A stretch of 64,000 nt of DNA from Actinomycetota bacterium (GCA_035629935.1 DASQLQ010000175.1:3606-67605); one strand, 5' to 3'; positions 3,067-63,433 are shown, counted from the first letter of the stretch. Notes: generated from the letters alone by a model not told the origin. Numbers and translations: made by a program.

Positions 3067-4040
3067 ACCGCGAACCTGATGTTGAGCACGTCTCCTTCTT
3101 GCACGACGTAGTCCTTGCCCTCGACGCGCAGTAGGCCCTTGGTTTTGGCTCCATCCCACGAACCGCTCTCGACCAGCTGCGCGTAGCCGACGACTTCAGC
3201 TCGGATGAAGCCTCGTTCGAGGTCGGAGTGGATCACTCCGGCTGCCTCAGGCGCCTTCGCGCCCCGGCGCACTTCCCAGGCCCGCGTCTCGTCTTCACCG
3301 GTCGTGAGAAACGTGATCAGGTCCAACGCGCGGTAACAAGCCGCTACGACGCGATCGAGACCCGGCTCCTCGATACCGAAGCCGAGCAGAAGCTCGCGAG
3401 CATCGGTGGGCTCCATCCCGGCGACCTCGGCTTCGAGCGCTGCACTGATCGCTAGCGCGTCGGGTAGGTCCGCCGACTCGGTATCGCCTTCCGCGACGTT
3501 GGCGACAACGACCCAAGGTTTGAGGCTAAGCGGCCCGAATCCCCTCAGGATCTTCAACTCGTCTCCATCGAAACCGCCATCGCGGAGAGGTCGCTCTTCC
3601 GATAGCAGCGCGTGGGCCTTCTCGAGAACGGCTACCTCGGCCGCCCCCTCACCCTTTCCCCTTGCTTTCTTCTTCGCCTTCTCCAAACCGCCTTCGACAC
3701 TGACCAGATCGGCGAGGACCATCTCCGTTTCGAGCGTGGCCAACTCGTCCTTGGGATTCGCATCACTACCGAACGCACGAACGACCATGCACAGCGCGTC
3801 CACCTGCCGGAACTCACCGATCCCCTGAGCCGTCAGTCCACCCGGGACATCGACGAACCGGACCTTGGCGGAGACGACCTTTTTCGAGCTCTCCTGATCC
3901 GACAGGACCTTCAACCGTTCGTCGGGGACCTCGACCACCGCCTGGTTGGACCGCCCCCCCACACCTCCGGAACGGGTCAACGCGGTGAACAGAGTCGATT
4001 TACCCGAGTAGGGCATGCCGACGATGCCGACGTCTTTCAC
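3063..4040 (-). CDS. ychF: redox-regulated ATPase YchF (Obg-like GTPase family)
   Basis: 325 aa; P-loop GMPYSGKSTLFTALT; C-terminal TGS-like GKDYVVQEGDVLNIRFAV. Confidence 0.9.
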   Translation of the reverse strand: MKDVGIVGMPYSGKSTLFTALTRSGGVGGRSNQAVVEVPDERLKVLSDQESSKKVVSAKVRFVDVPGGLTAQGIGEFRQVDALCMVVRAFGSDANPKDELATLETEMVLADLVSVEGGLEKAKKKARGKGEGAAEVAVLEKAHALLSEERPLRDGGFDGDELKILRGFGPLSLKPWVVVANVAEGDTESADLPDALAISAALEAEVAGMEPTDARELLLGFGIEEPGLDRVVAACYRALDLITFLTTGEDETRAWEVRRGAKAPEAAGVIHSDLERGFIRAEVVGYAQLVESGSWDGAKTKGLLRVEGKDYVVQEGDVLNIRFAV

Positions 4041-9079: not shown

Positions 9080-9105
9080 CGATACGTCTACGCGCGGGCT
9101 CACGC

Positions 9106-9127
9106 GGCGCACTCTATAGAGTGCGCC
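9106..9127. promoter_or_regulatory. perfect 22-bp palindrome (operator or RNA hairpin candidate)
   Basis: GGCGCACTCTATAGAGTGCGCC, ends 1 nt before ATG 9129, in a 49-bp divergent intergenic region. Confidence 0.6.
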
Positions 9128-9128
9128 G

Positions 9129-10790
9129 ATGCTGGCACGCAGAGCCGTCGCACTGGTAGTGGTGATGATGCTCGGCGCCGGGGCCTGGTTCCTGACCCGC
9201 GCTGACGAGCCTCCCCCGGCTACACGGCTGTCGACCTCGGATCGCACGTTCGCTTCGACCGATCCTCTCGAGCGAGCTTGCGCCCTCGACGAGGAATACC
9301 TGGTGCGCCTATGGAGAGGTCACCACCCCGTGCACTCGGAAGACATCACGACCGTGCCTCAGGAACCTAACTACTCGGGGTCGTTCGGGGTCACGAGTCA
9401 TTCGGGACCGTGGGACTACGTACAGACGATCCCGCTGGTGTTCTATGGCCCCAACCACATCACCCAGCAGTCTGCGCCACTGAAGAACGTCACGGCGAGC
9501 ATCACCGACGTCTACGCGACCGTCGGTGACCTCGTCGGCGTCGATCTACCCGCCAGAGACGGGGAGGTACTCGACGTCTCTGCAGGACCTCCCCCACCGA
9601 AGCTGATCGTCACGGTCGTATGGGACGGGGTGGGACGGAACGTTCTGGAACGTCACCCCGACGCGTGGCCGAATCTCGCGCGCATGGAGAAGGAAGGGAC
9701 CTCGTTCCTCGACGCCACCGTTGGTTCGTCTCCATCCATAACCCCCGCGACGCATTCCAGCCTGGGCACCGGCTCCTTCCCGCGGGAGCACGGCGTGACC
9801 GCGATCGAGTTTCGCACCGAGGAGGGCGATGTCCGGAGTGCCTTCGCTGGGAAGGACCCAAGTGACCTCGAGCTAACAACTTTCGGCGACGAGATCGACC
9901 TTGCCTTGAACAACGAGCCCCTCGTCGGGATGCTTGCGTGGAAGTCCTGGCATATGGGGATGTTGAGCCATGGTGTCCTGTCCCCGGGCGGTGACGCGGA
10001 CGAGATGACGCTGATCGATCCGCATGGTGGGCTCACCGGTAACGACGCCCTCTACACGACGCCGCTCCACTTAACGCGTTTGGAACCGAGGCTTGCCGAA
10101 CTCGCCGCCGAGCTCGACCAGGAGGACGGGAAGCTCGACGGCAACTCGATGGGTCACGACATCCTCGAGATGCACGACAACCCTGCATGGGTGGACTACC
10201 AGGGAGAGCTGCTCCTCCAGATGCTCGAGTCGGGTAGCTACGGGCAGGACGATGTGCCCGATCTGTTCATGACGAACTTCAAAGTCACAGACATCGTGTC
10301 GCACCAGTACTCGATGGACTCGGAAGAAGAGGCCATAGCTCTGCGAGCGCAGGACCGTGTGCTCGGCGAACTTGTCGACTATCTCGATGCCAACGTTCGC
10401 GACTACGTAGTGATCGTCACGGCGGACCACGGGAACACGCCGCCCCCCAAACGGACCGGAGCGTGGCCGATCCTCCAGGGTCAACTGCAGGAAGACGTCG
10501 ACGCCCATTTCGAGATCCCCGACGGCTCCTCCTTGATCGAGCAAACCACCGCCGTGGGTCCCTTCGTGAACCGCTCGACGATGAAAGAGTTGGGCGTGAG
10601 GCAGGCCGAGATCGCGGAGTTCCTCAACGGCTACACGATCGCCGACAACTGGAACGAAGAGGAGCTCCCGGCCGGCTACGAGAACCGGGGAGAAGAGAAC
10701 GTTTTCGCGGCCGCGTTCCCCAGCGACTGGATGGAACGTGTGAACCGATGCGCATTCGGGCAAGAAACACCAATTACCGAAGGCAATTAG
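9129..10790 (+). CDS. alkaline-phosphatase superfamily nucleotide pyrophosphatase/phosphodiesterase-like protein, membrane anchored or secreted
   Basis: 553 aa; N-terminal TM/signal; VVWDGVG...SSPSITPATHSSLGTG (nucleophile Thr region) and VTADHGN metal-site motifs. Confidence 0.7.
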   Translation: MLARRAVALVVVMMLGAGAWFLTRADEPPPATRLSTSDRTFASTDPLERACALDEEYLVRLWRGHHPVHSEDITTVPQEPNYSGSFGVTSHSGPWDYVQTIPLVFYGPNHITQQSAPLKNVTASITDVYATVGDLVGVDLPARDGEVLDVSAGPPPPKLIVTVVWDGVGRNVLERHPDAWPNLARMEKEGTSFLDATVGSSPSITPATHSSLGTGSFPREHGVTAIEFRTEEGDVRSAFAGKDPSDLELTTFGDEIDLALNNEPLVGMLAWKSWHMGMLSHGVLSPGGDADEMTLIDPHGGLTGNDALYTTPLHLTRLEPRLAELAAELDQEDGKLDGNSMGHDILEMHDNPAWVDYQGELLLQMLESGSYGQDDVPDLFMTNFKVTDIVSHQYSMDSEEEAIALRAQDRVLGELVDYLDANVRDYVVIVTADHGNTPPPKRTGAWPILQGQLQEDVDAHFEIPDGSSLIEQTTAVGPFVNRSTMKELGVRQAEIAEFLNGYTIADNWNEEELPAGYENRGEENVFAAAFPSDWMERVNRCAFGQETPITEGN

Positions 10791-50214: not shown

Positions 50215-54312
<4,098 letters not shown>

Positions 54313-54340: not shown

Positions 54341-55816
54341 ATGCCTACGGAAACAGCCCGTCTTGTCGGGGAGCGCTACCGCCTGCTCGAGCCTTTGGGC
54401 CGGGGGGGCATGGGCCTCGTTTGGCGGGCCGACGACACACTCCTGAACCGACCCGTAGCGGTCAAAGAGGTCGAGATCCCAACAGGCCTTCCCGACCAAG
54501 AGAAGGAAGCCCTCCAGGCGCGGGTCTTGCGTGAGGCGCGCGCAGCGGCGCGTCTCAACCATCCGAACGTCGTAACGGTTTTCGATGTGGTCGAGGACGA
54601 AGGACGCACCTTCATCGTCATGGAACTGATCGAGGCCCCCACCCTTGCCGAGATGGTCGAGCACCAGGGTTCCCTCTCGCCGGCACGAGCCCGTGAGGTC
54701 GCCCTCGAGGTCCTTAGCGCGATCGAGGCGGCCCATGCGGAAGGGATCGTCCATCGCGACGTCAAACCCGGAAACGTGATGATCCCGCCGGCCGGTCGGG
54801 TGAAGCTCGGGGACTTCGGCATCGCGTCGGTCAAAGGTGATCCCAAGCTCACGTCAACGGGACTGATCCTTGGCTCACCCTCGTACATGGCGCCCGAACA
54901 AGCGACGAGCGCGACGAGTGGGCCCGAGGCCGATCTATGGGCACTCGGAGCGTTGCTGTACTTCGCCGTCGAAGGGGAACCGCCGTTCGACAAGGGCCAG
55001 GCATTGCCGACGCTCGCGGCTGTGGTCGGTGAAGAACCGAAGCCGCTCGGTGACGGGCCTCTCCGAACCGTCGTCGAGGCTCTGATGAGGAAGGAGCCGG
55101 CAGCTCGACCCAGCATCGCCGAAGTGCGCAGCATGCTGTTGATCCCGTCCGGCGCCCCCACCGTCGGCCCGACTAAGCCGATGATCCAACCGGACCCGCA
55201 GCAGACACACACTGCCGCCCGATCCAAGAGGCCATGGGCGGTCGTCGGCGCCCTGGGTGCGCTGCTACTCGCAGCCGCCCTCCTCATGATCACCCTCGAC
55301 CGGAACGAAGCACCCCCGACAGAACCGCGAGCAGGGCAGAACGGGGAGCCGGAGAAGGCGGTTATCCCCCCATCGTGGGTCACCTATAAGCAGGAGGCGA
55401 TCGGCTTCACGATCGCCCACCCCGGGGGATGGCAGGTAGAGGAGAACTCCATCGATGATTCGAGTATCGACTTCCTGGATCCCGATTCCAGCACCTATCT
55501 GAGGCTGGACTGGACCGACACCCCGGGGGACTCCCCTGCGGGGGCCTGGCGCTCCCTCGAGCAGTCCTTCGAGGCCGCACACAGTGGGTACAGCCGGATC
55601 GGCATCACCCCCACCACCTTCAAGGGGATGGATGCGGCCACATGGGAGTTCACCTACGTGGACGGCGGGGTCACCCTCCATGCGATCGACCTCGGCTTCG
55701 TCACGAGCGATGGCTCCTATGGGTTCGCCCTGAACTTCCAGACCCTCGAGGAGGACTGGGCGGCTTCCCAGCCGATATTCGAGCAGCTCAAGGCCAGCTT
55801 CCAGGCGCCCGGCTAG
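54341..55816 (+). CDS. Ser/Thr protein kinase with TM helix and extracellular C-terminal domain
   Basis: GRGGMGLVW..VAVK, HRDVKPGN, DFGIA, SPSYMAPE; TM about residues 295-315. Confidence 0.9.
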   Translation: MPTETARLVGERYRLLEPLGRGGMGLVWRADDTLLNRPVAVKEVEIPTGLPDQEKEALQARVLREARAAARLNHPNVVTVFDVVEDEGRTFIVMELIEAPTLAEMVEHQGSLSPARAREVALEVLSAIEAAHAEGIVHRDVKPGNVMIPPAGRVKLGDFGIASVKGDPKLTSTGLILGSPSYMAPEQATSATSGPEADLWALGALLYFAVEGEPPFDKGQALPTLAAVVGEEPKPLGDGPLRTVVEALMRKEPAARPSIAEVRSMLLIPSGAPTVGPTKPMIQPDPQQTHTAARSKRPWAVVGALGALLLAAALLMITLDRNEAPPTEPRAGQNGEPEKAVIPPSWVTYKQEAIGFTIAHPGGWQVEENSIDDSSIDFLDPDSSTYLRLDWTDTPGDSPAGAWRSLEQSFEAAHSGYSRIGITPTTFKGMDAATWEFTYVDGGVTLHAIDLGFVTSDGSYGFALNFQTLEEDWAASQPIFEQLKASFQAPG

Positions 55817-55975
55817 GAGTCTAGAAATCACCCCTAACCGCTCAAGGCGGCTACCCGGAGTGCCGAATTAGTACTCAGTAACACCCAACGAACAGGCAAA
55901 CCTGCGGCAACGCAGGGGCGCAAAGCCAGGGGCCCCCCAGGGGTCGCCCAGCTACCGAACTGGGAGGAACGTGCC

Positions 55976-56458
55976 GTGAGCGCTACCAAGCGTTATGTCG
56001 CCGGGGCGGTGGCATCGATCTTGATCTTCTCTCTCTTTCCCGCCATCACTGCGTCGGCGGCCTGCTACTCACCCACGCGCAAAGAACGCCAGTTCGTGCG
56101 CAAGATGAATCAAGAGCGCAGAGAAGCCGGTAAGTCTCCCCTCAAACTCGACCTCGAAGTCTCGAAGGTGTCGAAGACCCACACCCGCGCCATGGCCAAG
56201 AACGCCAGCCTGTATCACACGGCCTCTGACGTTCTCAGTCGTCGCGTCACCAACTGGATACTTCTGGGTGAGAACGTCGGCGTCGGCGGCAGCGTCGGAT
56301 CGCTGCACCAGGCCTTCATGGATTCCCCCGCGCACCGCGCGAACATCATGCTCACCTCGTTCAAGTACGTCGGAGTCGGCACCGTTCAAGCCGGCGATCG
56401 CCTGTGGGTAACCGTCACATTCGAGGCAAAATCGAATCCAGGCTCCCCGCTCTGCTGA
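55976..56458 (+). CDS. secreted CAP/SCP (YkwD-like) domain protein
   Basis: 160 aa; GTG after GGGAGG; signal peptide; HT..M......HT...GENVG...FM.SP.HR.NI motif series. Confidence 0.8.
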   Translation: MSATKRYVAGAVASILIFSLFPAITASAACYSPTRKERQFVRKMNQERREAGKSPLKLDLEVSKVSKTHTRAMAKNASLYHTASDVLSRRVTNWILLGENVGVGGSVGSLHQAFMDSPAHRANIMLTSFKYVGVGTVQAGDRLWVTVTFEAKSNPGSPLC

Positions 56459-56636: not shown

Positions 56637-57173
56637 ATGAAGACACTTCGCCAGATCGTGACCGTTGCGACAACCGCTGCGCTACTCGTGATCTTCGTTC
56701 CGGCATCGACTTCTACGGCGTCTGCAGCCTGCTCGCGTGGGTGGGCGTATCGCGATGCGGAGACTTCCTTCGCTGCGAGGATCAACCATGCACGCGCTAC
56801 GGCGGGACAAGGCAACCTCCGACTCGACAAAGAGTTGTCGAAGGCAGCTCGACGTCACACGAGGGAGATGCTCGAGAGCAACACGCTGTATCACACGCCG
56901 GCTCCCGCTCTCAAGAACCGCGTGACCAACTGGACATGGCTGGGTGAGAACGTCGGCGTTGGAAACACCGTCGATTCGCTGCACGTCGCCTTCATGAACT
57001 CACCCGACCACCGCGACAACATCTTGTTCTCGAAGTTCCGTCACATTGGGATCGGCACCCGGATGCAGGGTGGACGCATGTGGGTGACGGTTCTTTTCGA
57101 AGCCAAGACCGATCCCGGCACGACGTTGCCGATGCCGACCTGCAAGGGCCTGATCTCCCTGAAGAGGAACTAG
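56637..57173 (+). CDS. secreted CAP/SCP (YkwD-like) domain protein, paralogue
   Basis: 178 aa; same motif series as 55976..56458 (LGENVGVG, AFM(D/N)SP(A/D)HR(A/D)NI, LWVTV.FEAK). Confidence 0.8.
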   Translation: MKTLRQIVTVATTAALLVIFVPASTSTASAACSRGWAYRDAETSFAARINHARATAGQGNLRLDKELSKAARRHTREMLESNTLYHTPAPALKNRVTNWTWLGENVGVGNTVDSLHVAFMNSPDHRDNILFSKFRHIGIGTRMQGGRMWVTVLFEAKTDPGTTLPMPTCKGLISLKRN

Positions 57174-58885: not shown

Positions 58886-58969
58886 GAAGTCGTGAATGCT
58901 ACGGAAATGGTGCTCATACCGATAGAGACATGTGGGGAAACGCCAGGCTCGGCCTGCTTGTGGCGAACC

Positions 58970-58998
58970 CTCTTATAGGAGTGCTAAAAGGGTGAGTG
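58970..58998. promoter_or_regulatory. conserved upstream motif of transporter-RHH module 1
   Basis: CCTCTTATAGGAGTGCTAAAA then GGTGAGTG; aligns with 60382-60401 (CCTCCTATAGGAGTGTTATAA); two GAGTG copies about 14 bp apart. Confidence 0.5.
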
Positions 58999-60108
58999 CA
59001 AACTAACCGAGCCAATGCGCGAAGCGACGGCGCTCGATATCTGAGATTGGTCATCGGGATCGGACGTTGGGCCGCTACCCTCTTCCTCTTCATCGGAGCG
59101 ATCCAGGTTCTCAAGACGGGCGCAGGCGAGCTCGACATCCTCGACGCCGGCGGCCGCTTTACTGCCAGCGCTCTCTCGACCTTGGGGTTGGGCTGGATCG
59201 GTGCCATGCTCACGCTCTCGGGCTCACCCGCGGTGGCCACTGCTCTGACTCTCCGCGCTACCGGAGCCATCGGCGAAGTACAGGCATTCACCATGGTGAC
59301 CGGGGCGCGGATGGGGGCCGCCTTCGTCGTTCTACTGGTGGCTGTTCTCTTCGCCTCCCGCCGAGCGGAGGGCCAGCGGATGGCCCCGATATCCACCGCC
59401 GTGATGACGCTCGTGATCACTGCAACCATGTACGTTCCCGGAGCCTTGATAGGCCTAGGGATCCTGGGATGGGATTCCTTCAAAGGCGTCCGTCTCCAAT
59501 CGCCTCCTACCTTCACGGGATTCCTGGATGCCGTCTACGACCCCATCCTCAGCCGGATCGAATCGTGGCCTCCGGCCATCCTGTTCGTGGGGGGCCTTGT
59601 CTTATTGGTCGTTTCGTTCAAGTTGCTCGATTCCATGGTTCCCGAGTTCGACGAGAAACGACTGTCCGACTCGGTTATGAAGCGCCTGCGATCCAAGTGG
59701 CCGATGTTCTTCCTCGGGATCGGGATCGTGATCGCGACGTTGTCCGTGTCGGTCGCGTTAACCGTTCTGATCCCGCTTGTCGGGAAGGGTTACCTCAAGA
59801 GGGAAGACCTAGTGCCCTACATCATCGGGGCCGATATCGGGACCCTGGTGGACAAGCTCCTGATCGCCTTTTTGGTCGGCGCGGGGACGATCAATCCGGC
59901 GTCCCCCGTTCGAGTCATACTCGCCGAGTTGGTAGGTGTAACCATCATGGGTCTAGTGATCATGGGCTTCATCTATATCCCGTTCCGAAGGGCCATCTGG
60001 AGGTTCCAGCGGCAGATGGTCCGAAGCAAACCTCGACTTGCAGCCTTTACGGGCGCTCTCTTCGTCATACCGATCGCTCTGATCGTGGTGGGTGTCGTCA
60101 CGACATGA
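58996..60108 (+). CDS. Na/Pi-cotransporter-like (PNaS family-like) membrane protein, copy 1
   Basis: 370 aa; two internal repeats resembling Na_Pi_cotrans signature regions (LSGSPAVATALTL..MVTGARMGAAF and LSVSVALTVLIPL..IIGADIGT); start GTG 58996 (TTG 59047 possible). Confidence 0.5.
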   Translation: MQTNRANARSDGARYLRLVIGIGRWAATLFLFIGAIQVLKTGAGELDILDAGGRFTASALSTLGLGWIGAMLTLSGSPAVATALTLRATGAIGEVQAFTMVTGARMGAAFVVLLVAVLFASRRAEGQRMAPISTAVMTLVITATMYVPGALIGLGILGWDSFKGVRLQSPPTFTGFLDAVYDPILSRIESWPPAILFVGGLVLLVVSFKLLDSMVPEFDEKRLSDSVMKRLRSKWPMFFLGIGIVIATLSVSVALTVLIPLVGKGYLKREDLVPYIIGADIGTLVDKLLIAFLVGAGTINPASPVRVILAELVGVTIMGLVIMGFIYIPFRRAIWRFQRQMVRSKPRLAAFTGALFVIPIALIVVGVVTT

Positions 60109-60359
60109 AGAGAGACGCCGACGCACACGTCACCCTGAAGATCCCGAGACCCCTCTACGAGGCCCTCAAGCAGGTGATCGAAGGATCGGGTTTCCACTCG
60201 GTCACCGAGTTCGCCGTCTACGTGCTGCGAGACCTGGTCTCGCACCGGCGAGACCCCTCCGCCCCGGCCCTCAAAGCGCCGGAGAGTGACGTGGAGGCCC
60301 TGAAGCCGGACGAGATAGAGGCCATCCGCAAGCGTCTGGAGTCCCTCGGTTACCTGTAA
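60105..60359 (+). CDS. ribbon-helix-helix (CopG/Arc/MetJ-like) small protein, copy 1
   Basis: 84 aa; ATGA coupling to the transporter; beta-strand VTLKIP + two helices ([30 protein letters not shown]); acidic linker; C-terminal [11 protein letters not shown]. Confidence 0.7.
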   Translation: MKRDADAHVTLKIPRPLYEALKQVIEGSGFHSVTEFAVYVLRDLVSHRRDPSAPALKAPESDVEALKPDEIEAIRKRLESLGYL

Positions 60360-60382
60360 AGACTGAGGGTCGAGAACCACCC

Positions 60383-60407
60383 TCCTATAGGAGTGTTATA
60401 ACACTCC
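60383..60407. promoter_or_regulatory. overlapping perfect palindromes upstream of transporter-RHH module 2
   Basis: CTCCTATAGGAG (60383-60394) overlapping GGAGTGTTATAACACTCC (60390-60407), ending 1 nt before ATG 60409. Confidence 0.55.
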
Positions 60408-60408
60408 G

Positions 60409-61458
60409 ATGCGCTTCGCTTGGTGGGTCCTCAAGTTTCTCCTCGCCTTATTCCTCTTCGTCGGGGCTCTGCAGGTGATGAAGACGGGCGCCGGAGGGAT
60501 AGGCGCCTTGCAACACGGGGGCCTACTGGTGAAGAACGCCGGTTCCACGTTGGGGCTTGGCTGGTTGGGCGCGCTCCTGGTCCTATCGGGCTCCCCGATC
60601 GCAGCTTCCGCCCTTTCCCTCGTCGCCTCGGGCGCCATCGACGAGATCGAAGGTTTCACGATGGTCACCGGGTCGAGGCTGGGCGCGGCGTTCGTCGTGC
60701 TGCTCGTCGCTGTGATCTACGCGTTGCGCGGAGGCGAAGGCAAGCGGATGGCTCCCGTGTCCACCGCGGTGATGGCGTTATCGACGACGGCATTGATCTA
60801 TGTCCCCGGCGCAGTGGTCGGCTTCGCTCTGTTGAAATGGGGGCCGTTCGCACAGCTGAAGCTGACCTTCCCCGGTCAATTCAGCGATCTGGTGGATCTC
60901 GTGTTCGGCCCCCTGCTCGAGCGGATCGAAAACCTTCCAGCGATCCTCCTCTTCGTGGGCGGGCTGGGGCTGCTCTTGGTCGCCTTCAAGTTGATCGACT
61001 CCGTAGTTCCCGAGATGTCGGGAGAATCGATCGAGCGGAACCGATTGTCCTGGCTCAGTGGCAAATGGACGATGTTCGGACTCGGCTGTCTCGTTGCCCT
61101 GATCGCGATGTCAGTGTCGGTCGCGCTGACCGTGCTGGTCCCCCTTGTAGCTAAGGGATACGTGAAACGCGAGGACATACTTCCGTACATCATGGGCGCG
61201 AACATCACGACATTGGGAGACACACTCTTGGCGGCGTTCCTGCTCCATTCACCGGCCGCGGTCAGGATCGTCCTCGCCGGGATCATCGGGACGAGCCTCA
61301 TCAGCATCCTGATACTCGCCTTCGCTTATCCACAGATCCGCCGAGGGATATGGAAGTTCCAACGACAGGTAGTGAAGAGCAAGCCGCGCCTGGCAGCCTT
61401 CACTGCGGCCTTATTCGCAGTTCCTGTGGCTTTGATCGTCATAGCGGGGGTGGTCTAG
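60409..61458 (+). CDS. Na/Pi-cotransporter-like (PNaS family-like) membrane protein, copy 2
   Basis: 349 aa; collinear with 58996..60108 at roughly 55-60% identity by eye. Confidence 0.5.
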   Translation: MRFAWWVLKFLLALFLFVGALQVMKTGAGGIGALQHGGLLVKNAGSTLGLGWLGALLVLSGSPIAASALSLVASGAIDEIEGFTMVTGSRLGAAFVVLLVAVIYALRGGEGKRMAPVSTAVMALSTTALIYVPGAVVGFALLKWGPFAQLKLTFPGQFSDLVDLVFGPLLERIENLPAILLFVGGLGLLLVAFKLIDSVVPEMSGESIERNRLSWLSGKWTMFGLGCLVALIAMSVSVALTVLVPLVAKGYVKREDILPYIMGANITTLGDTLLAAFLLHSPAAVRIVLAGIIGTSLISILILAFAYPQIRRGIWKFQRQVVKSKPRLAAFTAALFAVPVALIVIAGVV

Positions 61459-61706
61459 TGCCGAAAGAAGGAAGCGACAACCAGGTCACTCTGAAGATCC
61501 CACGACCTCTGTACGAGGCTCTGAAACAGGTCATCGAGGGCTCGGGGTTCCATTCCGTGACCGAGTTCGCCGTTTACGTCCTCCGCGATCTCGTCTCTCA
61601 CCGGAAGGGCGTGACCGACAAGGCCCCCGAGGCCGACGTGGAGGCCCTCAAGCCGGACGAGATCGAGGCCATCCGCAAGCGCCTCGAGTCTTTGGGGTAT
61701 CTCTAG
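61458..61706 (+). CDS. ribbon-helix-helix (CopG/Arc/MetJ-like) small protein, copy 2
   Basis: 82 aa; GTG overlapping the transporter TAG by 1 nt; 40-aa RHH core and 23-aa C-terminus identical to copy 1. Confidence 0.7.
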
Positions 61707-61731
61707 CTATTCCGCTACACTCCGCGAACCA

Positions 61732-62484
61732 ATGGCGGTACAAAAAAACGGGCATCTGGTCGAGATCGACCACGTCACGAAGAGCTTCGGGTCGAACGTC
61801 GTTTTAGACGACGTCAGCCTGTCGATCAGTCGCGGGGAAGCGATCGTGATCGCAGGAGTCTCGGGCTCGGGGAAATCGACGATGCTGCGCTGCATCAACG
61901 GTCTCGAGACGGTCGATTCCGGCGACGTTCGGTTCGACGGGCAATCCATCACGGGGGCCGGCAAGGGGATCTTCGCCCTGAGGGCCGAGATGGGGATGGT
62001 GTTCCAGCAGTTCAACCTCTTCCCTCACAAGACCGTCTTCGACAACATCACCCTGGGCCCCATCGAGGTGAAAGGCGTCTCCGAGAAGGAAGCCGCCGAG
62101 CGGGCCAAGAAGCTCTTGGAGCGCGTTGGCATCCCGGAGAAGGCAGACCAGTATCCTGCGGACCTATCCGGGGGACAGCAGCAGCGGGTCGCCATCGCTC
62201 GGGCGCTTGCGATGGAACCGAAGCTGATGCTGTTCGACGAACCGACGTCGGCGCTCGACCCCGAGATGATCCGGGAGGTCCTCGACGTGATGCGGGACCT
62301 GGCGCGCGAGGGCATGACGATGATCGTCGTGACTCACGAGATGGGATTCGCTCGGGAGGTGTGTGACCGGATCGTGTTCATCGACGAAGGAAAGATCGTC
62401 GAGGAAGGGAGCCCGGAGGAGTTCTTCAACAACGCCCAGAGCCAGCGGGCACGAGATTTCGTAGACAAGATCCTGCATCACTGA
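61732..62484 (+). CDS. glnQ: polar amino acid ABC transporter ATP-binding protein
   Basis: 250 aa; Walker [37 protein letters not shown]. Confidence 0.92.
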
Positions 62485-62515
62485 TGATGAAGGAAGAAAT
62501 GGAAGGGGGAATCGC

Positions 62516-63433
62516 ATGCAGAGTGTAAGGAAATGGCGTGGGCTCGTAGCCGCGCTGTCCATGGTCGCGCTTCTTGGTGTGGCCTGTGGTGGAGGTGAAG
62601 AGGAGCCGACGGATCCCGGCGCTGGAGCAGAGGAGCCGGAAGAGTTCCCGGCCGGTTCCACGATGGCGAAGTTGCAGGAAAAAGGCACGATCAAGGTGGG
62701 CGTCAAGTACGACGTTCCGCTCTTCGGATTCAAGAACCCGCAGTCGGGTGAGGTCGAAGGTTTCGACGTCGATCTCGCGCAGCGGGTGGCAGACGAGCTG
62801 GGCGTCGAGCTTAAGACGGTCGAGGCCATCTCGGACAACCGCATCCCCTTCCTCCAGGAAGGTACGGTCGACCTCGTCTTCTCCACCATGACGATCACGA
62901 CCGACCGGGATGCAGAGATCGACTTCTCCCGGCCGTACTTCATCGCTCACGGACGGGTCCTGGTACCCGGAGATTCCGACGTTAAGAGCATCAAGGACCT
63001 CGGCGAAGGGACGACGACCTGCACGGCCCTCGACTCGACCTACGAGACGACGGTCATTCCCAAGCAGGCGCCCGACACCGAGATCAAAGCACTCGGCAGC
63101 TACTCGGAGTGCTTCGCACAGCTGCAGCGGGGCTCGGTCGACGCTCTGATCACCGACAACGTGATCCTGGCCGGCTTCCTACAGCAGGACGACAGCATGG
63201 CAATCGTCGGTGAGGACCTCACCACGGATCCATACGGTGCCGGCATCAAGGAAGGCGACACCGAGTTCGCTGACTTCGTTTCGGGCGTGCTGGACGAGAC
63301 GCTCGAGGACGGCACGTGGCAGGACCTGTACGACAACTGGGTCGGCCAGTACACCGGTGATGAAGCAGAAGACCCCACCGACTGGACGCTCGAGCAAGCA
63401 CTAGAGACGTACCCCTGCGTCGAGACCTGCTAG
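62516..63433 (+). CDS. polar amino acid ABC transporter substrate-binding lipoprotein
   Basis: 305 aa; lipobox LLGVACG; type 2 SBP motifs (IKVGVKYDVPLFG, GFDVDLA, DLVFSTMTIT..R). Confidence 0.85.
   Translation: MQSVRKWRGLVAALSMVALLGVACGGGEEEPTDPGAGAEEPEEFPAGSTMAKLQEKGTIKVGVKYDVPLFGFKNPQSGEVEGFDVDLAQRVADELGVELKTVEAISDNRIPFLQEGTVDLVFSTMTITTDRDAEIDFSRPYFIAHGRVLVPGDSDVKSIKDLGEGTTTCTALDSTYETTVIPKQAPDTEIKALGSYSECFAQLQRGSVDALITDNVILAGFLQQDDSMAIVGEDLTTDPYGAGIKEGDTEFADFVSGVLDETLEDGTWQDLYDNWVGQYTGDEAEDPTDWTLEQALETYPCVETC

Follow-up and report, generated by a model that had tools for sequence, protein, structure and literature searches.

A 64,000-nucleotide (nt) stretch of DNA from an Actinomycetota bacterium (GCA_035629935.1 DASQLQ010000175.1:3606-67605), referred to here as the window, contains two consecutive modules, each of which pairs a gene for a membrane transporter (T) with a gene for a small ribbon-helix-helix (RHH) protein (R). 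Each module begins with a conserved sequence element placed immediately before the first start codon. The two modules are probably autoregulated operons, in which R would repress its own promoter, with sulfur status as the likely signal and sulfate or another sulfur oxyanion as the compound that T may import. Gene structure, the selection acting on R, its RHH homology, the conservation and phasing of the upstream element, and the genes beside which R and its relatives are encoded are results of the analysis, from which DNA binding, repression, a leaderless start, the effector and the substrate are inferred.

Module structure, selection and history

The four genes T1, R1, T2 and R2 lie head to tail on the plus strand (Table 1), and a terminator scan found no terminator between R1 and the module 2 element. 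The open reading frames and the translational couplings (ATGA and taGTG) described in a first-pass annotation of this DNA are borne out by the gene calls and their coordinates; the GTG start codon of T1 was assigned by analogy with two related loci (L034 and L056).

Table 1. Coordinates of the two modules and of related or adjoining features in the window (aa, amino acids; bp, base pairs; ABC, ATP-binding cassette).
Feature	Position	Strand	Description
Palindrome CGGCGCACTCTATAGAGTGCGCCG	9105..9128	.	24 bp, perfect; core CACTC-TATA-GAGTG; abuts ATG of 9129-10790
Gene	9129..10790	+	553-aa alkaline-phosphatase-superfamily protein; PF01663 Phosphodiest, weak Sulfatase and PafA-like matches
Module 1 putative promoter/operator	58968..58990	+	CCCTCTTATAGGAGTG, then C, then TAAAAG; GTG 5 nt further on
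T1	58996..60108	+	370 aa, GTG start; PF02690 (Na_Pi_cotrans) superfamily membrane protein, divergent paralogue
R1	60105..60359	+	84 aa; ATGA, a 4-nt overlap with the end of T1
R1, RHH core	residues 9-48		
R1, linker	residues 49-66		variable, Pro/Ala
R1, C-terminal helix	residues 68-84		conserved, ending LGYL
Module 2 putative promoter/operator	60380..60407	+	CCCTCC-TATA-GGAGTG-TTATAA-CACTCC; TATAAC 6 nt 5' of ATG
T2	60409..61458	+	349 aa; PF02690-superfamily transporter, mainstream orthologue
R2	61458..61706	+	82-aa RHH protein; GTG start, 1-nt overlap with the TAG stop of T2
ABC operon -10-like TANNNT element	61716..61723	+	TACACTCC, 10 nt before ABC ATPase start
ABC transporter, polar-amino-acid type, syntenic	61732..63433	+	ATPase 61732-62484; SBP_bac_3 binding protein 62516-63433

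The two transporters are 55% identical across 348 aligned residues, in keeping with an earlier by-eye estimate of about 55-60%, and R1 and R2 are 85% identical overall. Within R, two blocks are identical in protein sequence. In the 40-codon core (VTLKIP...VSHR), 22 of 120 nucleotides differ, yielding 22 synonymous and no non-synonymous changes, and in the last 23 codons all differences are again synonymous (nine codons, 10 of 69 nucleotides), exactly as first counted. Synonymous divergence between modules 1 and 2 (dS; Nei-Gojobori) is saturated at 1.55 for R and 1.56 for T, with non-synonymous divergence (dN) of 0.115 and 0.40 respectively. Because all differences in these blocks are synonymous and dS is saturated, the identity of R1 and R2 reflects selection, acting as a family-wide constraint, and not recent gene conversion; R1 and R2 are functionally one and the same protein. 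The extreme purifying selection proposed for R is also evident beyond the window, given that 45 of its 84 positions are invariant across 46 homologues, and that the R core averages 91% identity to the window protein among 69 species, compared with 50-78% for T orthologues.

The first-pass annotation also regarded the modules as a tandem duplication, which does not hold in the sense of a recent event. T2 is the mainstream orthologue, sharing 64-78% identity with the transporter of most related genomes and up to 92% with metagenomic proteins, whereas T1 reaches 55-60% at best with any protein and, by identity clustering, groups loosely with a minority clade. Since T1 is divergent and none of 82 other related loci contains two modules, the pair is best read from these comparisons as an old paralogy placed side by side.

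R as a ribbon-helix-helix protein

The RHH assignment made in the first-pass annotation is accepted on family-level profile evidence. A profile of 62 diverse family members (A2) matches the RHH domain of NikR (2bj1; E=0.0047) over profile positions 7-51, and 24 of these 62 proteins match PF01402 individually (best E=7.8e-6). The family is large, with 1320 proteins at 90% clustering and 216 representatives at 50% clustering. Relatives, which NCBI names CopG family transcriptional regulators, are found in 285 species-level genomes, all of uncultured Actinomycetota and Gaiellaceae included, and also in Planctomycetota and archaea. For the metagenome scan, a profile from a very diverse alignment (A3) was too variable and a narrower one (A4) was used instead.

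In the AlphaFold2 (AF2) monomer model, an extended segment (residues 9-14) is followed by two helices (15-25 and 33-48), a disordered Pro/Ala-rich region (49-66) and a further helix (68-81), which presents a conserved hydrophobic face formed by I71, I74, L78 and L81. The extended segment is not called as a strand by DSSP on the monomer, the RHH sheet being one that forms in the dimer only.

Genomic context of R

Among the 82 related loci, T lies directly upstream of R in 44 and the order is reversed in one more, with a 4-nt overlap at 34 of 40 T-to-R junctions. Co-conservation of the pair, a question raised at the outset, is thus seen in about 45 of the 82 loci. In the rest R stands alone as the first gene; R occurs without T at approximately 45% of Actinomycetota loci and at all sampled loci of other phyla. 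The 3' end of a lone R gene often overlaps an orphan gene for an SBP_bac_3 lipoprotein, or the R gene is followed by a polar-amino-acid-type ABC transporter as in the window; in Gaiellaceae-like genomes the genes after R encode a GT4 glycosyltransferase and a PF01663 enzyme.

Outside the Actinomycetota, R is encoded beside sulfate genes in nine of the nine clades placed in context. In Planctomycetota, R precedes ATP sulfurylase (sat), an alkaline-phosphatase-superfamily gene (gene X) and adenosine 5'-phosphosulfate (APS) kinase (cysC), and sat was present in 73 of the loci fetched. Elsewhere, R is followed by APS kinase (P0142), is divergent from APS kinase (P0271), in one case with ATP sulfurylase next (P0260), or is followed by 3'-phosphoadenosine 5'-phosphosulfate (PAPS) reductase (P0263, and P0279 from Aenigmatarchaeota). 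Transporters also adjoin it: a Na_sulph_symp (DASS) protein follows R in P0277 and a TauE/SafE permease in P0135, and in P0170 a CysA-like ABC ATPase with TOBE_2 and CysA_C_terminal domains precedes R with a 4-nt overlap, a coupling like that of T and R. By association, the R family is most likely a regulator of sulfate assimilation.

Further features of these loci are recorded here. Gene X encodes a protein of approximately 316 aa (L093, 5674-6624) of the alkaline-phosphatase/sulfatase superfamily with a weak STM4013-family match, and is conserved between sat and cysC in 44 Planctomycetota-like loci; tblastn found no counterpart near R in the Actinomycetota loci or the window. The protein P0221 (220 aa) has an R-family N-terminus and continues with sequence similar to the PUA-like region at the N-terminus of ATP sulfurylase; it may represent a fusion, or else a frameshifted call that spans the R-sat junction. 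In the Aenigmatarchaeota locus L168, two R-like genes in tandem (3257-3439 and 3501-3716) lie upstream of a PAPS-reductase-domain gene, the first encoding a 60-aa protein that ends in ...KVKSRLRSLGYLD and lies directly upstream of a 71-aa R homologue.

The transporters and the case for phosphate

Both transporters belong to the PF02690 superfamily, in agreement with the Na/Pi-cotransporter-like family call of the first-pass annotation. They score above the Pfam gathering cut-off of 29.1 bits (T1, 37.3; T2, 35.9), each over two matched stretches, and an internal repeat alignment agrees with two inverted Na_Pi_cotrans repeats. T2 aligns to both repeats of the SLC34A2 cryo-electron microscopy structure 9z60 (E=1.1e-6). 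Each half of an SLC34 protein has the motif QSSS, which models place in the sodium and anion sites (PMC6325988). In T2, the position equivalent to QSSS is occupied by LSGS in the first repeat and by MSVS in the second, where both SLC34A2 repeats have QSSS, and LSGS and MSVS are each conserved across 47 T-family members. On this sequence evidence T is a divergent subfamily of the SLC34 fold and, with QSSS replaced, a phosphate substrate is not to be assumed. Of the original description as a phosphate-type transporter, the superfamily stands, but phosphate is doubtful in view of these replacements and of the sulfate operons that house R-family kin.

Given the link of the R family to sulfate, the transporter translationally coupled to R is most simply one for sulfate or a related oxyanion. 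Sulfate may well be the anion imported by T, and phosphate is an unlikely one. The use of sulfate in place of phosphate is structurally plausible because SLC34 is thought to share its fold with the DASS carriers (PMC6325988).

The principal alternative, that T is a genuine Na+/phosphate cotransporter and R a dedicated regulator replacing a PhoU-like domain in phosphate homeostasis, is distinctly unlikely. The PF02690 score, the alignment to SLC34A2 and the label given by JGI to T homologues, SLC34 sodium-dependent phosphate cotransporters, all accord with it, but T falls far short of the NCBIfam Na/Pi cut-offs (25.6 bits against 210 for TIGR00704; 19.2 against 50 for NF037997) and retains neither QSSS motif. 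It could account for a transporter without a PhoU domain (PF01895 has no Pfam match in T or R); however, a regulator dedicated to T would not be expected in the many Actinomycetota loci, and in all the Planctomycetota and other sampled clades, where R occurs without T. This wide occurrence also means that the conserved C-terminus of R cannot be a T-specific docking module. Finally, several clades have alkaline-phosphatase-superfamily genes near R, and a related palindrome precedes one at 9105, as a phosphate regulon might predict, though every one of the nine non-Actinomycetota clades examined has R adjoining sulfate, not phosphate, genes.

A putative promoter-operator upstream of each module

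The motif CCTCYTATAGGAGTGYTA has exactly two copies in the 64 kb, at 58969 and 60381, where 0.03 would be expected. In module 2, three half-sites create two overlapping palindromes, CTCCTATAGGAG and GGAGTGTTATAACACTCC (60390-60407). The corresponding CCCTCTTATAGGAGTG of module 1 matches the clade consensus CACTCCTATAGGAGTG imperfectly, with TAAAAG at the consensus position of TATAAG. The full clade-wide consensus reads CACTCCTATAGGAGTG-Y-TATAAGAG, with an ATG or GTG start codon 5-9 nt beyond it, and is found at 50 of the 82 related loci and at both modules. The conserved upstream palindromes of the first-pass annotation are therefore conserved as an operator-like element linked to R across dozens of species, but are perfect in module 2 only.

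The element follows R and its operon. It always lies 5' of the first operon gene; where T is absent it stands directly 5' of R (L014, L039, L050 and L058), and where R precedes T (L015) it is found 5' of both genes. R's constant companion is thus this DNA motif and not T, which argues against R as a PhoU-like transporter subunit and leaves the earlier suggestion that it replaces such a domain unsupported. Variants built from the same hexamer include GAGTGTTATAAGAGTG at L011-type loci and ACACTCC-N4-ACACTCC...GAAGTGT at Gaiellaceae-like loci. In Planctomycetota, whose proteins are approximately 50% identical to R, three to four tandem GGAGTG repeats lie upstream of the R gene, often after an inverted CACTCC. 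Repeats on the same strand are 11 bp (137 cases), 22 bp (61 cases) or 33 bp (10 cases) apart, with any other spacing seen at most three times. Phased GGAGTG/CACTCC repeats go with the R gene in three clades. Clades with an RHH beta-strand other than VT[ILV]KIP are without the hexamer, as expected if the strand reads the hexamer; this pattern is indirect evidence for the RHH mode of binding, in which a dimer would insert a two-stranded sheet into the major groove of repeated half-sites.

The start codon lies 5-9 nt past a TG-N-TATAAG-like sequence, and TTG is often found about 17 bp upstream. This comparative positioning suggests a promoter with an operator in its spacer and to a leaderless or near-leaderless transcript. 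Together, the element and R would form an autoregulated promoter-operator; the autoregulation suggested in the first-pass annotation is consistent with an R-linked, operator-like element at the operon's own promoter.

It is improbable that the element is a mere strong promoter, or an RNA hairpin controlling translation or read-through termination, with R as a nucleoid-like or accessory protein. The module 2 palindromes could fold in a transcript reading through from module 1, from which no terminator separates them, but the direct repeats of Planctomycetota, with their strict 11-bp period, are unable to base-pair; the element therefore works at the DNA level. The GGAG within the element could serve as a Shine-Dalgarno sequence if a leader exists, though at 16-20 nt from the start codon it is too distant, and Rfam at gathering thresholds identified no RNA family within 58-62 kb, the element included. 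Its TATA-rich, -10-like sequence would suit a promoter alone, yet such a promoter would not be expected to track R whether or not T is present and whichever gene comes first, or to lose its hexamer where the RHH beta-strand differs.

The site flagged at 9106-9127 in the first-pass annotation is real: a perfect palindrome that abuts an ATG and extends over 9105-9128 (Table 1). No perfect palindrome in the window is longer, that at 60390-60407 being second, and the total number of palindromes is not elevated. Its core is that of the T-R operator with each arm one base shorter and the half-site spacing 2 bp shorter, and it includes a TAGAGT hexamer 6 nt before the ATG of the following gene. Enzymes of the same superfamily as the product of that gene occur in R operons of two other clades, although none is a close homologue. 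The palindrome may be a further operator of R or of a related protein; alternatively, it could be an unrelated leaderless promoter.

Proposed mechanism

In the account favoured here, each module would be a short operon, T then R, whose promoter is flush against the first start codon. There being no space for a Shine-Dalgarno leader, a leaderless or near-leaderless transcript is probable. R dimers are predicted to bind GGAGTG/CACTCC half-sites spaced about one helical turn apart, over the -10 sequence and the spacer, and would thereby repress T and R together in a negative autoregulatory loop. Translational coupling (ATGA) would tie the output of R to that of T, fixing the R:T ratio, and a single regulatory pool would serve both modules, whose R proteins are identical in core and C-terminus. 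The amphipathic helix conserved at the C-terminus, with its hydrophobic face and terminal GYL, probably either joins one dimer to the next in the manner of Mnt or transmits the signal. The signal for R would most likely be sulfur status, and by analogy with MetJ might take the form of a small sulfur metabolite. T, having lost the QSSS phosphate/sodium motifs, would most likely import sulfate or a related sulfur oxyanion.

A broader and more tentative proposal is that R could be the founding member of a new family of sulfate-assimilation repressors, MetJ-like and acting at 11-bp GGAGTG repeats, with T as a new importer of sulfate or a sulfur oxyanion, derived from the SLC34/Na-Pi fold through replacement of the QSSS motifs. 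Such a family would span Actinomycetota, Planctomycetota, other bacteria and DPANN archaea. Its members might sense sulfate, APS/PAPS or a metabolite of the cysteine pathway, the invariant GSGF loop and the basic C-terminal LGYL helix being candidate sites.

Several observations weigh against these proposals. At the Actinomycetota loci, the 4-6 kb around R contain no sulfur-assimilation gene, and tblastn searches with Sat and APS kinase found none there or in the window, so that the link to sulfur reaches the window by extrapolation from the family. The alkaline-phosphatase-superfamily enzymes that recur in R operons and at 9129, taken with the SLC34-like T, would fit phosphate starvation too. 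R contains no evident ligand-binding domain. Searched singly, R1 and R2 have no match in Pfam, NCBIfam or PDB sequences; the AF2 model is of moderate confidence, with a predicted local distance difference test (pLDDT) score of 72 overall and 84-87 in the RHH-core blocks, and its top Foldseek matches, though RHH proteins (VapB, Reg576, ParD, NikR and Arc), are not significant (E >= 0.6). At the DNA level, the left half-sites of the window, CCCTCT in module 1 and CCCTCC in module 2, deviate from CACTCC, the -10-like hexamers TATAAG, TATAAC and TAAAAG are without the usual final T, and a consensus sigma-70 scan found no promoter.

It is improbable that R is instead an RHH antitoxin-like or partner-sequestering protein, whose C-terminal helix would bind a protein (the transporter, an enzyme of sulfate activation or some other conserved protein) that modulates DNA binding, as in conditional cooperativity, with no small molecule involved. 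An RHH domain, disordered linker and short conserved C-terminal helix are the layout of many RHH antitoxins, VapB and ParD are among the top Foldseek matches, G82 and Y83 at the extreme C-terminus are invariant in all 62 diverse members and there is a weak likeness between the C-terminus and the end of an archaeal APS kinase, but that likeness looks generic, no toxin-like neighbour was found in the loci inspected, and the genes adjoining R (transporters of three families, binding proteins, Sat, APS kinase and PAPS reductase) differ by clade with no single conserved partner. The APS kinase concerned (7yq0) is the second PDB match of the family profile, through its extreme C-terminus EEEVEAVLKKLMELGYL (E=0.18); a relationship of the R C-terminus to APS kinase was set aside as probably generic, given the similar helix leading into G-Y/L-I at the C-terminus of other APS kinases, of which four were inspected.

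The literature searched contained nothing on an RHH protein in connection with sulfate assimilation, ATP sulfurylase, cysC, cysteine biosynthesis or PF02690, nor on the motif sequence, and the earlier statement that no described system matches still holds in that literature.

Adjoining genes

Downstream of R2, the binding protein of the ABC transporter scores far below the cut-offs of the NCBIfam cystine, glutamine and Lys/Arg models. Between R and the ABC genes (61707-61731 in the window), the element CCGCTAGACTCC is conserved about 10 nt before the ABC ATPase start at many loci (for example L003, L010, L036, L041 and L046), and the position appears elsewhere as TAGACT(CC) or TACACT(CC); the window copy, TACACTCC, happens to contain one CACTCC hexamer. 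This TANNNT element probably gives the ABC operon its own promoter, from which the leader would be very short. The orphan SBP_bac_3 genes of other loci start overlapping the R stop codon (4285-5162 in L004, 4294-5175 in L011, and similar loci) and have no adjoining permease or ATPase gene; their best NCBIfam matches, far below cut-off, are a cystine-binding protein (L011) and the Lys/Arg/Orn-binding subfamily TIGR01096 (L004).

Upstream of module 1, a c-di-GMP-I riboswitch (55885-55959, plus strand; 57 bits, gathering score 35) is located immediately 5' of two tandem genes for mutually similar small secreted proteins (55976-56458 and 56637-57173). Genes for CAP-domain proteins (PF00188) are called beside T in the corresponding place at loci L001 and L002. 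Further upstream, genes for an Amt ammonium transporter and a GlnD-type PII uridylyltransferase (50215-54312), an ordinary nitrogen-regulation pair, lie 5' of a Ser/Thr kinase gene (54341-55816).

Significance and comparison with known systems

Sulfate uptake and activation belong to core metabolism and, to our knowledge, their regulators are known only in a few model lineages and are of the LysR, Rrf2 and ROK types. In hosts that range from Actinomycetota of soil to Planctomycetota and archaea, the majority uncultured, R is found beside sat, cysC, cysH-like and cysA genes and three kinds of anion transporter, and a near-invariant regulator with a recognisable operator would allow sulfur regulons to be predicted. 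Judged by this context, the PF02690 subfamily to which T belongs, routinely labelled as sodium-dependent phosphate cotransporters, is probably mis-annotated, and the context suggests that the SLC34 fold is able to carry sulfate. Should the link to sulfur fail, a well-conserved, translationally coupled transporter-repressor operon with a promoter-embedded operator would still be left.

T resembles SLC34, NptA and YjbB (PF02690; TC 2.A.58 phosphate:Na+ symporters) in its two inverted repeats, which align to 9z60. It differs from SLC34 in being half the size, in having LSGS and MSVS for QSSS, and in a genomic and regulatory context that points to sulfur. Unlike bacterial NptA/YjbB-type proteins, it has no PhoU-like tail.

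The known regulators of sulfate assimilation include CysB and Cbl (LysR family), CymR (Rrf2 family) and CysR (ROK or Crp family). The presumed role of R, control of sulfate uptake and activation, would be theirs, whereas the folds and families are unrelated; we know of none among them that is an RHH protein or has an operator of GGAGTG repeats at 11 bp.

Closer parallels lie among RHH repressors. The RHH domain of NikR (2bj1, 1q5v) is the best sequence-profile match to the R core, but NikR carries an ACT-like nickel-binding tetramerisation domain of about 90 aa, in place of which R has, beyond its disordered linker, no more than a helix of 17 residues. Mnt of phage P22, a protein of approximately 82 aa, has an N-terminal RHH domain and a C-terminal helix that makes the tetramer binding two operator half-sites. 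R shares its size and domain order, and Arc, also of P22, is among the Foldseek matches of R. R lacks sequence similarity to these phage proteins and, unlike them, is a chromosomal protein with cross-phylum conservation; tetramerisation through its C-terminal helix is putative.

MetJ, the methionine repressor of Escherichia coli, is an RHH protein that uses S-adenosylmethionine as co-repressor and binds tandem 8-bp met-boxes. Like R, it is small and has no separate ligand-binding domain; as proposed for R, it governs a sulfur regulon through several dimers placed side by side on short tandem repeats that overlap a promoter. R differs in having no sequence relationship to MetJ beyond the fold, in its 11-bp GGAGTG repeats, in its linker and C-terminal LGYL helix, and in being usually encoded inside the operon that it apparently controls. 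Autoregulated RHH repressors with promoter-embedded repeat operators are well known from Arc, Mnt, CopG, MetJ and omega; the R family is uncharacterised and has no Pfam model of its own, but the kind of system to which it belongs is already a familiar one.

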